This document shows positions 1-4,429 of a stretch of 4,429 bases of DNA, in pieces. Every line of letters begins with the position of its first letter. Positions within the stretch are counted from its first letter, which is position 1. The stretch is from a virus (taxonomy: Duplodnaviria > Heunggongvirae > Uroviricota > Caudoviricetes): IMG/VR virus record IMGVR_UViG_2660238209_000015; one strand, 5' to 3'. Made by a program: the position numbers and the translations under genes. The notes below the pieces were generated by a model. The model saw only the letters and a program-made list of their open reading frames with translations. It made no database searches and had not been told where the DNA came from.

Positions 1-890
1 GTGTTGTACTGGGTGCCGTAGGTATTTTTCCAGTAATACGTCGTGTCACCACAAATCCACGGCACATCTGCAGCACTGCCACCATGGCACTGCGCGTTAA
101 ACACGGAGAGGTCAGCACGAAACTGTGTCAGCATGGCTGTAAACAGCGCAGGTTGCTGTGCGTGGGTGGCGGCGCTCATGTCAAACTCTCCCTGCATCCA
201 GCACACCGCCAGCAACACATTTTTCGGGTTCTTCTGTAATGCAGCTTTGGTGCGCGCAATCAGGTCCTGATATAACGGTTTACCCACACCCCAGCGCGCC
301 GAATCCTGGCTGGCCCCCGTGTCCGCACTGAATGTCCCCTCCGCGCCCTGGGTAAATGCCGAACCACCACGACAGCATGGTACCAGCAGGATCCCCGCGT
401 TATTCGGGATATACGGGAGCAGTTTTTTGGCAATATGTAACCCCTGGCCGACACAGCCGTACTGCCCTTTGCTCAGGTCTGCCTTCGGATGATTCAGCGT
501 ACTCATATCCTGCACATCATGCAGGCAGTGGTCGGCCGGAATAATATCGTTATATCTGCAGGCAGCCCCACCCGGCGTAACTGTACTGCGGCGCGCCAGC
601 TGTTTAATGCGCGGATCCGGAGCATCGTATGAATCCGGAAGCGGAAGCCCTTCCCCGTAAGCCATTGCATTGGACTGCCCGGCCAGTACGATGACGTAGT
701 ACCAATCCGGCTCAGTTGCACCACTGACCACCACATCACCTTCTGCTGCAATCGCCTGCATCAGGGTATAAGGGGTTATGGCCACCGGACTACCAAACGG
801 CTGCCAGCCCTCTTTCAGTTTGTGTGTCAGCTTTTCCGCAAGGTCTGACGGCGACGCCGCCCTGACCACGTCATAGTGTTTAAATGCCAT
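1..890 (-). CDS. nanS: Prophage-type sialate (9-O-acetyl-Neu5Ac) O-acetylesterase, NanS-p-like; N-terminal 296 codons only, gene continues past the left edge of the window
   Basis: Manual minus-strand translation from ATG at 890..888 is open for 296 codons to position 1 (MAFKHYDVVRAASPSDLAEKLTHKLKEGWQPFGSPVAITPYTLMQAIAAEGDVVVSGATEPDWYYVIVLAGQSNAMAYGEG...). It is missing from the supplied ORF track, presumably because it has no in-window stop. A GQSN motif (catalytic-serine block of the SASA/SGNH esterase family) sits ~70 aa from the start, after a short N-terminal domain as in prophage NanS-p proteins. Strong SD GGGGAGGAA lies 4 nt upstream of the ATG. Position downstream of the tRNA cluster matches Stx-phage/lambdoid late-region synteny. 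Family assignment is from recalled motifs, not a search. Confidence 0.8.
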   Translation of the reverse strand, partial: MAFKHYDVVRAASPSDLAEKLTHKLKEGWQPFGSPVAITPYTLMQAIAAEGDVVVSGATEPDWYYVIVLAGQSNAMAYGEGLPLPDSYDAPDPRIKQLARRSTVTPGGAACRYNDIIPADHCLHDVQDMSTLNHPKADLSKGQYGCVGQGLHIAKKLLPYIPNNAGILLVPCCRGGSAFTQGAEGTFSADTGASQDSARWGVGKPLYQDLIARTKAALQKNPKNVLLAVCWMQGEFDMSAATHAQQPALFTAMLTQFRADLSVFNAQCHGGSAADVPWICGDTTYYWKNTYGTQYN

Positions 891-893
891 TAT

Positions 894-901: not shown

Positions 902-1069
902 TTTCCGGGATTTTCCTCAACAGTTGCGGGCCACGGTCCGGCCACAAGGAGAATCAAAAGAGGAGAACCGCAGCCCGCAAAACGAAAAAGGCCGCGCAGT
1001 TGCGCAGCCTTATAAACCCTGGTTAAAATCCACACGATAAAAATGACAATGCAAGTATCTCATGCTGTT

Positions 1070-1095
1070 GCCCGAACCCACTCGGGCTTTTTTTT
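1070..1095 (+). terminator. Rho-independent terminator oriented on the plus strand, opposite to the surrounding phage genes
   Basis: Stem gcccga (1070-1075) / tcgggc (1082-1087), 6 bp with 5 G:C, loop acccac, followed directly by T8 (1088-1095). In the minus-strand reading the hairpin is followed by AACAGCAUG, not a U-tract, so it is unidirectional. Confidence 0.55.
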
Positions 1096-1413
1096 GCATG
1101 TAAAAAGGCTCCTGCGATGAGAAGCCTGGATATATGCCTAATCTCTGTATACAGCATGATGCCGGGTGCCTCCCGGTGAATTCTGCAATGACCAGACAGA
1201 ATCCGCAACTTGCCTATACAATACGCAACCAAACATCTGTCATTATGCCCCGCCGCTCAGGGGGATTCATCATGCAGGATTTTTTTAACAAACGCTCAGC
1301 ATGTCAGGCAACAGTCAACTGCCTGAATTGTGAGGCATTTAACATTTCACTGTCCGGTGTCTTTCCTGTAATAAAAAGCCCGCAAAAGAGAGTCAGGGCA
1401 GATAAGTGTGGTG

Positions 1414-1490
1414 TGGTGCGTTGTACTGGATTCGAACCAGTGACCGATTGCTTAGAAGGCAATTGCTCTGTCCGGCTGAGCTAACAACGC
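1414..1490 (-). tRNA. argO: tRNA-Arg (anticodon UCU), argO-like, as carried by lambdoid/Stx prophages
   Basis: Minus-strand sequence GCGTTGT-TA-GCTC-AGCCGGACA-GAGC-A-ATTGC-CTTCTAA-GCAAT-CGGTC-ACTGG-TTCGAAT-CCAGT-ACAACGC-A-CCA folds as a canonical cloverleaf: 7-bp acceptor stem, GGTTCGAATCC T-arm, anticodon loop with TCT at 34-36, encoded CCA. Confidence 0.9.
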
Positions 1491-1570: not shown

Positions 1571-1646
1571 TGGTGGCCCTTGCTGGATTTGAACCAGCGA
1601 CCTGGCGATTATGAGTCGCTCGCTCTCACCACTGAGCTAAAGGGCC
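1571..1646 (-). tRNA. ileZ: tRNA with CAU anticodon, most similar in architecture to minor tRNA-Ile2 (ileX/ileZ type, lysidine-modified); reads as Met by anticodon alone
   Basis: Minus strand GGCCCTT-TA-GCTC-AGTGGTGA-GAGC-G-AGCGA-CTCATAA-TCGCC-AGGTC-GCTGG-TTCAAAT-CCAGC-AAGGGCC-A-CCA, 76 nt, canonical cloverleaf, anticodon CAT. The acceptor stem and TTCAAAT T-loop resemble E. coli ileX as I recall it, more than elongator tRNA-Met. Confidence 0.88.
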
Positions 1647-1686: not shown

Positions 1687-2745
1687 TCATCCGTTACGAA
1701 TGATTAAATCCTGTACTTCCCGCACCGTCTGCTCAAAACGTTCAGTCTCCAGTTCAACGCCAGTTGCACGACGTCCCAGCGCCATCGCTGCTTTCACTGT
1801 CGACCCCGACCCCATGAAGAAATCTGCAACCAGGTCTCCCGGACGACTGCTTGCGCTGATTATCTGCTGCAACATTTCTGCCGTTTTTTCGCACGGATGT
1901 TTCCCTGGATAGTACTGCACCGGTTTATACGTCCACACATCGGTGTACGGCACCTGCACCGTCACACCGAAATACCGCCGCAGATGCTTATATTCACTCT
2001 GCAGCTCCGCATACTGTCGGTTCAGAGAGGCATACGTATCCACCAGCTGGTGGTGGGGCTTTTCCAGTTCACCCCGCTGATGCTTCTCTTCTGCCACCCG
2101 GGCAAACAGTGCCTGTAATTTCAGATAATCGCTTTCGTTCGGCAGCAGCCACTGACCGGCACTGAACCAGTGCGACACCATGTTTTTCTTTCCTGTGGCA
2201 TCTGCAATCTGTTTTGCCGTTATCCCCAGGACAGCGCGCGCATCACGAAAGTAAGCAATCAGCGGGGCCATCACATGCTGTTTCAGTGCCCTACCCTTCG
2301 CCTCATACCCGGCATCTTTCGGACGATACGGCCCCTGATAATGCTCTGCGAACAGAATGCGCTCTGTGGCGGGGAAATACGCCCGCAGGCTTTCCTTGTT
2401 GCACCCGTTCCAGCGTCCGGACGGCTTTGCCCAGATGATATGGTTCAGCACGTTAAACCGCTCACGCATCATGATTTCGGTGTCAGATGCCAGACGATGG
2501 CCACAGAACAGGTAAAGACTTCCGGCAGGTTTCAGCACCCGCCAGAACTGCGCAAGACACTGGTCCAGCCACTTCAGGTAATCTTCATCACCCGCCCACT
2601 GGTTATCCCAGCCCTCGGGTTTCACTTTGAAGTACGGCGGGTCCGTGACTATCAGGTCAACAGAATTTTCGGGTAACGACCGCATAAATTCCAGGCAGTC
2701 GGCGTTGATTAACTCACAACTGGATATTTTTACAGTATTAAGCAT
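1687..2745 (-). CDS. Orphan DNA methyltransferase, beta-class amino-MTase (N6-adenine likely; N6_N4_Mtase family)
   Basis: 352-aa ORF. Motif IV DPPY (…SVDLIVTDPPYF…) is near the N-terminus and motif I FxGxG (…DFFMGSGSTVKAAMALGRRATGVE…) near the C-terminus; this IV-then-I order defines the beta group. DPPY rather than SPPY favours N6-adenine. No restriction endonuclease partner is present in the window. Stop TGA at 1689..1687, 40 nt upstream of the tRNA cluster. Confidence 0.9.
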   Translation of the reverse strand: MLNTVKISSCELINADCLEFMRSLPENSVDLIVTDPPYFKVKPEGWDNQWAGDEDYLKWLDQCLAQFWRVLKPAGSLYLFCGHRLASDTEIMMRERFNVLNHIIWAKPSGRWNGCNKESLRAYFPATERILFAEHYQGPYRPKDAGYEAKGRALKQHVMAPLIAYFRDARAVLGITAKQIADATGKKNMVSHWFSAGQWLLPNESDYLKLQALFARVAEEKHQRGELEKPHHQLVDTYASLNRQYAELQSEYKHLRRYFGVTVQVPYTDVWTYKPVQYYPGKHPCEKTAEMLQQIISASSRPGDLVADFFMGSGSTVKAAMALGRRATGVELETERFEQTVREVQDLIIRNG

Positions 2746-2881: not shown

Positions 2882-2909
2882 AAATAAAAAAGCCTTCAGG
2901 ACTGAAGGC
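2882..2909 (-). terminator. Rho-independent terminator (minus strand) at the 3' end of the small ORF
   Basis: Plus-strand gccttcag-ga-ctgaaggc (2892-2909) is a perfect 8-bp inverted repeat (7 bp effective with a 4-nt loop), preceded on the plus strand by aaataaaaaa (2882-2891), which is a U-rich tract 3' of the hairpin on the minus strand. It overlaps the stop codon of the small ORF. Confidence 0.6.
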
Positions 2910-3093
2910 GTCTGTAACAACCAAACTGATAGTCTGCCAGACCCGCCATAACCAGCTGGGTCAGTATTAACTGGCAGCGTTCGCGTGAAAGGTAAGTATT
3001 CTGCGCAATCTCCCCGACTGTCGCCGGGTCGGTAACGCTTAATTCATTAAACACCACTCTGGCGGTTTCTGTCATATCCTGCTGTTTCAGCAT
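2896..3093 (-). CDS. Small hypothetical protein (65 aa), possibly a winged-helix/HTH DNA-binding protein
   Basis: ATG at 3093..3091 preceded by AAAAGGGAAAAAGAC (GGG-type SD, ~8-nt spacer). Product MLKQQDMTETARVVFNELSVTDPATVGEIAQNTYLSRERCQLILTQLVMAGLADYQFGCYRRLQS has a helix-turn-helix-like pattern reminiscent of small PapI/FaeA-type regulators (from memory, unverified). The ORF track extends this frame to 3216 (GTG start, 106 aa), but that extension runs through AT-rich sequence and abuts terminator T1, so the shorter form is preferred. Confidence 0.4.
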   Translation of the reverse strand: MLKQQDMTETARVVFNELSVTDPATVGEIAQNTYLSRERCQLILTQLVMAGLADYQFGCYRRLQS

Positions 3094-3216
3094 GTCTTTT
3101 TCCCTTTTCCGGTTAACGTGACACACCAATAACTCTTGTCGAAAAAGCCAGCAACCTGAAAGAACGGTATTAATAACCACCAGCGAATTTATTGCGCTGC
3201 TGTATATTACGGACAC

Positions 3217-3238
3217 AAAAAAACCACCTTCCGGTGGC
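3217..3238 (-). terminator. Rho-independent terminator (minus strand) ~95 nt downstream of the Q-like gene; tR'-like candidate
   Basis: Minus strand GCCACC-GGAA-GGTGG followed by TTTTTTT: 5-6 bp G:C-rich stem, GNRA-type tetraloop, then U7 (plus-strand a7 at 3217-3223, stem 3224-3237). Confidence 0.6.
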
Positions 3239-3334
3239 TTCCTTGTGCGAAAAAACTTGCATTTCGCCTCGCGATACAGCTTTGCGAAGCTTACAGGAAT
3301 TCAAGCTGTTTCTGCGTAAAAAAGCAAGCTTTTT

Positions 3335-3877
3335 TTATCGAAATGAATCGTGCATAGGTACATAAAGCATGTGTTCAGCCACGGCTAACCAACCTGCAAT
3401 ACGTTTCTCACATGTGCTGAAACACCATTCCGGGTGAGTACGATTTAAACATTCTGCCATTTTTCTCTTACTCATTCCCCGTCCTTCGTACCTTTGCCGG
3501 AGAATATTGATTAGCCCGGGATATTCCCCAAGCACCTCACTGATAACGCGATCAATAATCAACGCCTCTGTGTCTGTACAATGTGACAACCAGCTCTTCT
3601 GCTTCCCTCTGGTCATATCCCGAAAAAATGCCTCAAGTTCCGGTTTTTCCAGCCCGGATTTCTTCATGCTGCGTAAAACCTCATTAACTGCTGTTTTCGT
3701 CAGCTTTTTCGAAACCAGTAACCGGTTAAACATATTTCCGGATTTACCCCCACCGATATACGACCACCGCCCCCACATCCGTAATTTCCCCTGGATCCAG
3801 ACTGCTTCCAGCGTGTTCAGGCGTAAATGTTCGCCGCTTTTGCCTGTAATTTCCGGATATATCATATTTACGCTCAC
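3335..3877 (-). CDS. Putative late-gene antiterminator (Q-like) by synteny; function not confirmed
   Basis: 180-aa ORF with GTG start at 3877 (the first ATG is at 3865, giving 176 aa); stop TAA at 3337..3335. It lies immediately downstream of the rusA 3' fragment with a GTGA stop/start overlap, and is followed within ~100 nt by an intrinsic terminator, then the methyltransferase, tRNAs and nanS-p. This is the position Q occupies in lambdoid phages of the 82/DLP12 type (rusA-Q-pR'-tR'-late genes). An LRMWGRW segment loosely recalls a W-G-x-W segment in Q proteins as I remember them. No search was performed. Confidence 0.5.
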   Translation of the reverse strand: MSVNMIYPEITGKSGEHLRLNTLEAVWIQGKLRMWGRWSYIGGGKSGNMFNRLLVSKKLTKTAVNEVLRSMKKSGLEKPELEAFFRDMTRGKQKSWLSHCTDTEALIIDRVISEVLGEYPGLINILRQRYEGRGMSKRKMAECLNRTHPEWCFSTCEKRIAGWLAVAEHMLYVPMHDSFR

Positions 3878-4071: not shown

Positions 4072-4398
4072 ATGACTAAAAATACTCGTTTTTCCCCCGA
4101 AGTCCGTCAGCGGGCGATTCGTATGGTTCTGGAAAGTCAGGATGAATATGACTCACAGTGGGCGGCAATTTGTTCCATTGCCCCAAAGATTGGCTGTACG
4201 CCGGAGACTCTGCGTGTCTGGGTTCGCCAGCATGAGCGGGATACCGGGGGCGGTGATGGTGGGCTCACCAGCGCTGAACGTCAGCGTCTGAAAGAGCTGG
4301 AACGTGAAAATCGTGAACTGCGCCGCAGTAACGATATCCTTCGCCAGGCTTCCGCTTATTTTGCGAAGGCGGAGTTCGACCGCCTCTGGAAAAAATGA
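4072..4398 (+). CDS. IS3-family transposase OrfA (HTH DNA-binding subunit), IS629-like
   Basis: 108-aa [111 protein letters not shown]; N-terminal HTH plus leucine-zipper-like C-terminus typical of IS3 OrfA. SD GAGGTAAACAGG upstream of the ATG at 4072. Confidence 0.9.
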
Positions 4399-4429
4399 TG
4401 CCACTGCTGGATAAGCTGCGTGAGCAGTA
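4395..4429 (+). CDS. IS3-family transposase OrfB (DDE catalytic subunit), first 11 codons only; -1 frame relative to orfA
   Basis: ATGATGCCACTGCTGGATAAGCTGCGTGAGCAG gives [11 protein letters not shown], overlapping the orfA stop. The A6 run (4390-4395) at the overlap is a plausible -1 frameshift site for an OrfAB fusion. Confidence 0.7.

Follow-up and report, generated by a model that had tools for sequence, protein, structure and literature searches.

The small RNAs EcOnc01a/b (AgvB), EcOnc02 (AsxR) and EcOnc03 constitute a class of 51–60-nt 'anti-sRNAs' with a conserved 3′ region of approximately 42 nt and a variable 5′ region of 14–18 nt or more; at least eight Sakai prophages encode them 3′ of PR′ as part of convergent sRNA pairs (Tree et al. 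2014, PMC4104026). AgvB occludes the R1 seed of GcvB and AsxR opens the terminator of FnrS, in both cases with compensatory mutations as proof, and AsxR sits 282 bp 3′ of stx2AB (Tree et al. 2014, PMC4104026). AgvB binds Hfq on its distal and proximal faces, in the manner of a class II sRNA.

EcOnc03 was published as AAATGACAATGCAAGTATCTCATGCTGTTGCCCGAACCCACTCGGGCTTTT (Tree et al. 2014, Supplementary Figure S4, PMC4104026), and A-R-N motifs were reported within it (Tree et al. 2014, Fig. S4, PMC4104026). The RNA ranks in the top three by abundance of the unannotated RNAs crosslinked to Hfq and gives northern bands of 56, approximately 54 and 51 nt; its 5′ ends, mapped by RLM-RACE, are heterogeneous and triphosphorylated (Tree et al. 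2014, PMC4104026). It is crosslinked to Hfq in CRAC experiments and destabilized in a Δhfq strain (Tree et al. 2014, PMC4104026).

The stretch analysed here, referred to as the window, comprises 4,429 nt of a Caudoviricetes record (IMG/VR IMGVR_UViG_2660238209_000015). Positions 1036–1095 of its plus strand very probably constitute the EcOnc03 gene, encoding a 51–60-nt, Hfq-dependent and trans-acting member of the anti-sRNA family. EcOnc03 is already known experimentally from E. coli O157 prophages; the locus is a rediscovery rather than a new element, and a published sRNA brings no new kind of biology. What the initial annotation, read from the sequence alone, recovered is a real 60-nt gene left unannotated by RefSeq.

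Identity of the small RNA gene

The elements of the gene are as follows.

1000–1005, plus strand: −35-like hexamer TTGCGC of the EcOnc03 promoter, read from the sequence
1006–1023, plus strand: promoter spacer of 18 bp between TTGCGC and TAAAAT
1024–1029, plus strand: −10 hexamer TAAAAT, part of the conserved CTGGTTAAAAT
1036–1095, plus strand: EcOnc03 small RNA gene, longest form (published sequence, Rfam AgvB model, Sakai Sp9)
1036–1054, plus strand: allele-specific 5′ variable region GAUAAAAAUGACAAUGCAA (alignment of four alleles)
1055–1065, plus strand: conserved family core GUAUCUCAUGC, complementary to eptB −2 to +9 and engaged in CLASH mRNA hybrids
1070–1087, plus strand: terminator stem-loop GCCCGA/ACCCAC/UCGGGC (terminator scan, fold, allele alignment)
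1088–1095, plus strand: U8 tract (T8 in DNA), EcOnc03 3′ end

Window positions 1041–1091 are identical to the published EcOnc03 (51 of 51 nt), and the 61 nt at 1035–1095 recur exactly in prophage Sp9 of E. coli O157:H7 Sakai and in the Stx1 phage BP-4795. In Sp9 the copy is flanked by argO3 and ECs_1781 (the nanS-p homologue), and the same methylase and ileZ3 precede it. A 56-nt form with four terminal U's places the start at G1036, and the EcOnc3 portion of a CLASH chimera, beginning GATAAAAATGACA, likewise starts at window position 1036. The shorter forms begin approximately 2 and 5 nt inside the longest one, the published 51-nt form corresponding to 1041–1091. A plus-strand promoter and terminator of its own, giving an RNA of approximately 60 nt (approximately 1036–1095), had been proposed in the initial annotation, and this proposal agrees with the mapped EcOnc03 (56, approximately 54 and 51 nt; start at 1036).

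The RNA itself shows no difference from EcOnc03 of Sakai Sp9 (Tree et al. 2014), named 'EcOnc3' in Waters et al. 2017. The flanks in Sp9 are alike in carrying the methylase, ileZ, argO, an STnc100-type partner and a nanS-p homologue, whereas the surrounding 541 nt differ from Sp9, and O111 and other O157 strains match the window at 100%. A further difference from the Sp9 locus is the IS3-family element beside the Q-like gene. We infer transcription of EcOnc03 at this window from the identical sequence in another strain.

A promoter of its own, of constitutive type (TTGCGC, 18 bp, TAAAAT), is the best explanation for the transcript, and is held jointly with the gene assignment at the same high confidence. 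The longest mapped 5′ end is located 7 nt 3′ of the −10 hexamer. The TTGCGC hexamer is the same in AgvB, AsxR, EcOnc03 and type-4 loci, and in the window it falls within a late-strand hairpin (988–1011). The initial coordinates of both hexamers, of the 18-bp spacer and of the stem with its T8 to 1095 were all exact, and the distance of approximately 180 nt between the terminator and the nanS-p start was also borne out (ATG at 893, minus strand).

On the plus strand a G+C-rich stem-loop directly precedes the U8 tract, as in a Rho-independent terminator; the terminator scan returned six pairs (five G–C), a loop of 6 and the tail TTTTTTTTGC. On the minus strand the hairpin at 1070–1087 is trailed by AACAGCAUG and would therefore not terminate the late strand there. 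The terminator is the only consensus structure across four alleles. Conservation of the hairpin and U-tract in homologous regions, which the initial annotation had named as a check, was found in all four, with an invariant stem and a U-tract of 6 to 9 across loci. No covariation in the stem was detected in the four-allele alignment, and an invariant stem makes covariation uninformative either way. The U8 tract is presumed to be the Hfq proximal-face site, and the 5′ variable region (1036–1054) is presumed to combine the 'anti-sRNA' seed with an A-R-N Hfq distal-face site.

The initial annotation had also considered the terminator to be a possible relic, and a relic or chance hairpin without its own transcript would fit several of the scores obtained here. 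Terminator-like sites in the window number 7 versus 5.1 ± 2.5 in shuffled sequences, a class without enrichment; the fold of 1030–1098 is unexceptional against shuffles (z = −1.43); and the promoter, with 8 of 12 consensus positions, falls under the threshold of the promoter scan. As the motif, fold and promoter scores are all weak, pattern statistics alone are insufficient to establish an RNA gene. Homology and published experiments do establish the gene: the identical sequence yields abundant Hfq-bound RNAs with triphosphate 5′ ends, and promoter and terminator are kept in four alleles and in hundreds of genomes. Expression of the identical sequence and conservation of its signals refute the relic, the probability of which is negligible.

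Genomic context and the convergent partner

The neighbouring features in the window are as follows.

4072–4429, plus strand: IS3-family orfA (HTH_Tnp_1) with an ALIL frameshift pseudoknot, at the right end
3877..3335, minus strand: Q-like antiterminator (Pfam DUF1133, Phage_antitermQ)
2896–3216, minus strand: 106-aa ORF between the candidate tR′ and the methylase
2745..1687, minus strand: N6/N4 DNA methylase
1646..1571, minus strand: tRNA (tRNA-Met (CAT) according to ARAGORN)
1490..1414, minus strand: second tRNA
1304..1096, minus strand: STnc100-family sRNA, the convergent dyad partner (Rfam RF02076, 175.2 bits)
978..1011, minus strand: late-strand terminator-like hairpin of 10 pairs (7 G–C), then UUUUUCGUUUUG (terminator scan), just upstream of nanS-p
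893..3, minus strand: nanS-p, DUF1737–SASA esterase, N-terminal 297 aa, ATG at 893

The phage protein genes of the late region are all on the minus strand, and the late-strand order is Q, DNA methylase, ileZ–argO tRNAs, sRNA dyad, nanS-p and lysis, at the moron site of a lambdoid prophage. EcOnc03 thus occupies the location typical of the family, between Q/PR′ and the lysis genes and with a convergent second sRNA. The first tRNA gene, tRNA-Met according to ARAGORN, is identical to the gene annotated as ileZ3 (tRNA-Ile, CAU) in Sakai. The IS3-family orfA adjoins the Q-like gene and interrupts whatever stood upstream. A candidate tR′, from which a short StxS-like PR′–tR′ RNA might arise, is the minus-strand hairpin CCACCGGAAGGUGG with its U7 tail at 3215–3240, approximately 100 nt past the Q-like gene on the late strand. 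The 106-aa ORF at 2896–3216 had no Pfam match and is followed by a terminator-like hairpin (2909..2892).

The STnc100-family partner, the Sakai counterpart of which is EcOnc28, has its terminator hairpin at 1127..1106 (terminator scan). EcOnc03 and this partner are arranged tail to tail, with 3′ ends approximately 6 nt apart (ACAUGC), and the central region of the partner varies among dyad alleles. BP-4795 and an ExPEC prophage have the same dyad. According to a 2026 preprint, PasD is related to the STnc100 family. PasA and PasC of EPEC were rejected as the RNAs encoded here, PasA lying on the far side of the esterase gene and only PasD matching the STnc100-type partner.

The late-strand hairpin at 978..1011 is kept in the four alleles, where one-sided changes from G–C to G–U preserve pairing, and it is probably a second terminator that insulates nanS-p in the lysogen.

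A minus-strand reading frame (1232..1023, 69 aa, TTG start) could in principle encode a late-strand small protein and make the plus-strand hairpin incidental, and BP-4795 ORF42 and a 'conserved hypothetical protein' of YYZ-2008 overlap the homologous stretch. However, the frame covers two independently detected sRNAs, an internal T-run of 7, 8 or 9 among near-identical loci shifts it, and RefSeq/PGAP annotates nothing at the locus in E. coli genomes. On these three grounds a genuine protein product is exceedingly improbable.

Four alleles on a common scaffold

Among 120 IMG/VR loci exactly three alleles were found, AgvB (73 loci), EcOnc03 (28) and AsxR (19). Their shared scaffold consists of the −35 hexamer, an 18-bp spacer, CTGGTTAAAAT, a start at CGAT, GTATCTCATGC as the core, and the terminator.

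A fourth allele, CGAUUAUAAAAAUGU-AUAUCUCAUGCUGUUGCCCGAACCCACUCGGGC-U8, is present in ExPEC/UPEC prophages and shares the promoter and the esterase/tRNA context. It was reached through partial megablast hits in ExPEC genomes, one copy being located at 2485–2540 of the prophage stretch inspected. In approximately 175 complete E. coli genomes the EcOnc03 query matched only in part, and both of those inspected carry the fourth allele; in IMG/VR it was counted in 34 loci with a pattern in which the first core base was relaxed. IMG/VR patterns excluding the three known seeds at positions −3 and −4, or altering the last base of the core, returned no further alleles.

The four alleles differ only in an A-rich 5′ segment of 15–22 nt, the −35, spacer, −10, CGAT start, core and terminator being conserved. 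In this alignment, and by its published identity, EcOnc03 has the conserved 3′ part and variable 5′ part that characterize the family.

Relation to AgvB and AsxR

AgvB (EcOnc01a/b), the anti-GcvB sponge, has in common with EcOnc03 the promoter, CGAU start, core GUAUCUCAUGC, terminator, dyad position and size class, and differs in the terminator loop (U where EcOnc03 has C). AsxR (EcOnc02; RF02703), the anti-FnrS RNA, has the same architecture and an identical terminator with a different 5′ segment; it adjoins stx2AB, whereas the EcOnc03 window is without stx genes.

The Rfam scan suggested in the initial annotation returned a match to the AgvB model (RF02702) at 1035–1094 on the plus strand, with 56.6 bits against a gathering score of 56 (E = 4e-9), a marginal pass. 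The AsxR model (RF02703) gave 46.8 bits over 1035–1094, below its gathering score of 63. Both scores derive from the shared 3′ 42 nt. The label would make EcOnc03 simply AgvB, a sponge of the GcvB R1 seed, and besides the gathering score 12 contiguous pairs with GcvB R1 are possible, four of them G–U (−11.5 kcal/mol). Against it stand the 5′ segment, which lacks the CACAACA mimic of the GcvB target (R1) present in AgvB, and the predicted duplex with GcvB, which at z = +0.24 versus shuffles is at chance level, while AgvB itself reaches −19.9 to −20.3 kcal/mol and ranks GcvB first in the same screen. The score stems from the part that all members share, and EcOnc03 was treated as a separate RNA when it was described (Tree et al. 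2014, PMC4104026). There was no notable complementarity to FnrS either (−10.2 kcal/mol, z = −0.22); AsxR ranks FnrS first, at −10.4 kcal/mol. Since CACAACA is missing and pairing with GcvB and FnrS equals that of shuffles, EcOnc03 is regarded as a separate third member, and its being AgvB is very unlikely.

Rfam labels the fourth allele AsxR exactly at the cut-off (63 versus 63). Pipelines built on Rfam will call EcOnc03 'AgvB' and this allele 'AsxR', with a borderline score in both cases, and neither has the seed that defines the function in question.

Candidate sRNA partners of the 5′ segment

The 5′ region of EcOnc03 was compared with 26 K-12 sRNAs (GcvB, FnrS, MicC, MicF, RyhB, RseX, SgrS and others), among which no partner stands out; the best duplexes were with SgrS (−13.2), RseX (−13.1) and McaS (−12.6 kcal/mol), with z about −1. 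A match to MicC seen by eye failed in the duplex screen. The EHEC sRNAs Esr41, StxS and HnrS gave no signal in that screen. Pairing of the variable region with its own convergent STnc100-type partner was likewise rejected, cognate pairs giving z of +0.7 to +1.5.

With Esr41, StxS, HnrS and two STnc100-type RNAs added to the K-12 set, the screen covered 31 sRNAs. The best of the 31 was EcOnc27/sRNA103, an STnc100-family sRNA located just downstream of stx2 in Sp5 (Stx2 phages), with a duplex of −15.3 kcal/mol (z about −3) equalled by 5 of 500 shuffles. EcOnc03 1036–1056 would form 17 Watson–Crick pairs over 21 nt with nt 70–91 of EcOnc27, in its variable part (Sp5-type loci), a site predicted to be approximately 60% paired within EcOnc27 itself. 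The family-wise shuffle fraction is 0.115 over 31 targets, in a screen of low power in which the validated AgvB–GcvB and AsxR–FnrS pairs ranked first and yet also missed family-wise significance. Sponging of EcOnc27/sRNA103 by the 5′ segment, as modelled here, is therefore put forward as an unlikely candidate. If true, it would constitute sRNA cross-talk between co-resident prophages and would link an allele of Stx1 phages to an RNA of Stx2 phages that is tied to HUS-predictive SNPs.

Predicted pairing of the conserved core with eptB

Chimeras of 'EcOnc3' were recorded by RNase E-CLASH (Table EV7, Waters et al. 2017, PMC5286369), among them EcOnc3–ompC with seven reads from both replicates and EcOnc3–ECs4425 with four reads. 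The ompC hybrid pairs via CUGUUGCCC, which is specific to the EcOnc03 allele. ECs4425 is eptB, and the hybrid site UUUGC-AUG-AGA-UAC covers eptB −2 to +9 and includes the start codon. The core (1055–1065) is a perfect 11-nt complement of eptB −2 to +9. The same eptB site was also captured in chimeras with AgvB1 (4 reads) and AsxR (5 reads) (Waters et al. 2017, PMC5286369). The predicted duplexes with eptB have energies of −18.8 (EcOnc03 and AgvB), −21.9 (AsxR) and −17.4 kcal/mol (fourth allele), with shuffle fractions of 0.000–0.024. Other EcOnc3 chimeras likewise set GCAUGAGA-like partner motifs against the core.

By a rough estimate, a few 11-nt matches are expected by chance between a 60-nt RNA and the start regions of a 5000-gene genome, and the case for eptB therefore rests on the three independent chimera sets together with the invariance of the core. 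Most EcOnc3 CLASH hybrids are single reads. Enrichment of cation and iron transport GO terms among the EcOnc3 CLASH targets was given little weight, the mntH hybrid retrieved being a single read in the terminator region.

The literature search found no paper linking eptB to the AgvB/AsxR/EcOnc03 family. The gene is a classical target of MgrR and ArcZ, and MgrR is reportedly a core Hfq class II sRNA that represses it. MgrR resembles EcOnc03 in its mode of working only, through complementarity to the eptB start, and the two have no sequence homology. By complementarity, the family core may repress eptB at its start codon and so change LPS Kdo modification, which we consider a tentative proposal with the odds somewhat against it. 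The match of core and eptB, together with the hybrids of three members, suggests that the family has an mRNA target in common, besides the allele-specific sponging.

Probable trans action and the late transcript

In lysogens carrying the identical sequence, a short transcript that Hfq binds and stabilizes has been demonstrated. The mechanism proposed for EcOnc03 follows that of its relatives. The RNA would be made in the lysogen and bound by Hfq via its U-tail and the A-R-N-rich 5′ part, and would act in trans by Hfq-assisted base pairing through the A-rich 5′ segment. By analogy with AgvB and AsxR, this variable segment may sequester a partner RNA, and the conserved core may pair with mRNAs such as those of eptB and ompC.

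The initial annotation had instead suggested a small antisense regulator complementary to the nanS-p leader. In that reading, the 60-nt RNA pairs with the Q-antiterminated late read-through transcript towards nanS-p and the lysis genes; in its variants, pairing triggers processing, or the late transcript titrates EcOnc03 during induction. The EcOnc03 gene is enclosed entirely by the late transcription unit and runs antisense to it, with perfect complementarity over 60 nt, so that Q-modified read-through RNA would be fully complementary to EcOnc03. Late-strand terminators at 1127..1106 and 1011..988 flank the antisense stretch, and Tree et al. (2014, PMC4104026) note that AsxR, too, is antisense to the stx2 transcript. 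However, the literature examined on AgvB, AsxR and EcOnc03 shows no cis effect experimentally, compensatory mutations establish trans action for AgvB (on GcvB) and AsxR (on FnrS), and the EcOnc03 hybrids recovered in vivo are with trans-encoded mRNAs. Moreover, the 5′ segment varies among alleles while its flanks are constant; a purely cis-acting RNA needs no allele-specific seeds, and such seeds, set in an unchanging scaffold, point to selection for a function in trans. Cis-antisense regulation of the nanS-p leader differs from the known trans action of the AgvB/AsxR family, and as the main function of EcOnc03 it is improbable. Judged from the arrangement of the genes, EcOnc03 might also act secondarily in cis during induction, beside the preferred trans action. 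The initial interpretation is thus partly supported, being right about the structure and partly right about the function.

Distribution and linkage to stx1

A 72-nt query (1024–1095) used with megablast is specific for the EcOnc03 allele. Of 5426 complete E. coli genomes, 532 contain full-length copies, which RefSeq leaves without annotation. The same query matched 57 phage records, which include 46 named 'Stx1a-converting' and phi-O153 (named Stx1-converting); phage H30 (a 1905-nt record), the Shigella phages 7888 and 75/02 Stx, and Lys8385Vzw are among the others. H-19B, BP-4795 and YYZ-2008, which also bear EcOnc03, are Stx1 phages. By their names or by what is known of the phages, 56 of the 57 records are Stx1 phages, Lys8385Vzw standing outside this count.

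In BP-4795 the exact 61-nt gene (3551–3611 of the stretch examined) lies 293 nt 3′ of stxB1, antisense to stxB1 and before yjhS/nanS-p. The position of AsxR beside stx2 is thus mirrored by that of EcOnc03 beside stx1 in Stx1 phages, a parallel of possible interest for EHEC riboregulation, as are the borderline Rfam labels and the eptB match of the family core. The Stx-phage sRNA table of a review does not list EcOnc03. Both the window and Sakai Sp9 are stx-less relatives, and in them the dyad comes immediately after the tRNAs.

In a scan of one genome per species, only NZ_JPLE01000080.1, an 888-nt contig assigned to 'Xanthomonas pisi', matched. It contains an exact AsxR-type gene with E. coli phage flanks and is most likely an assembly contamination.
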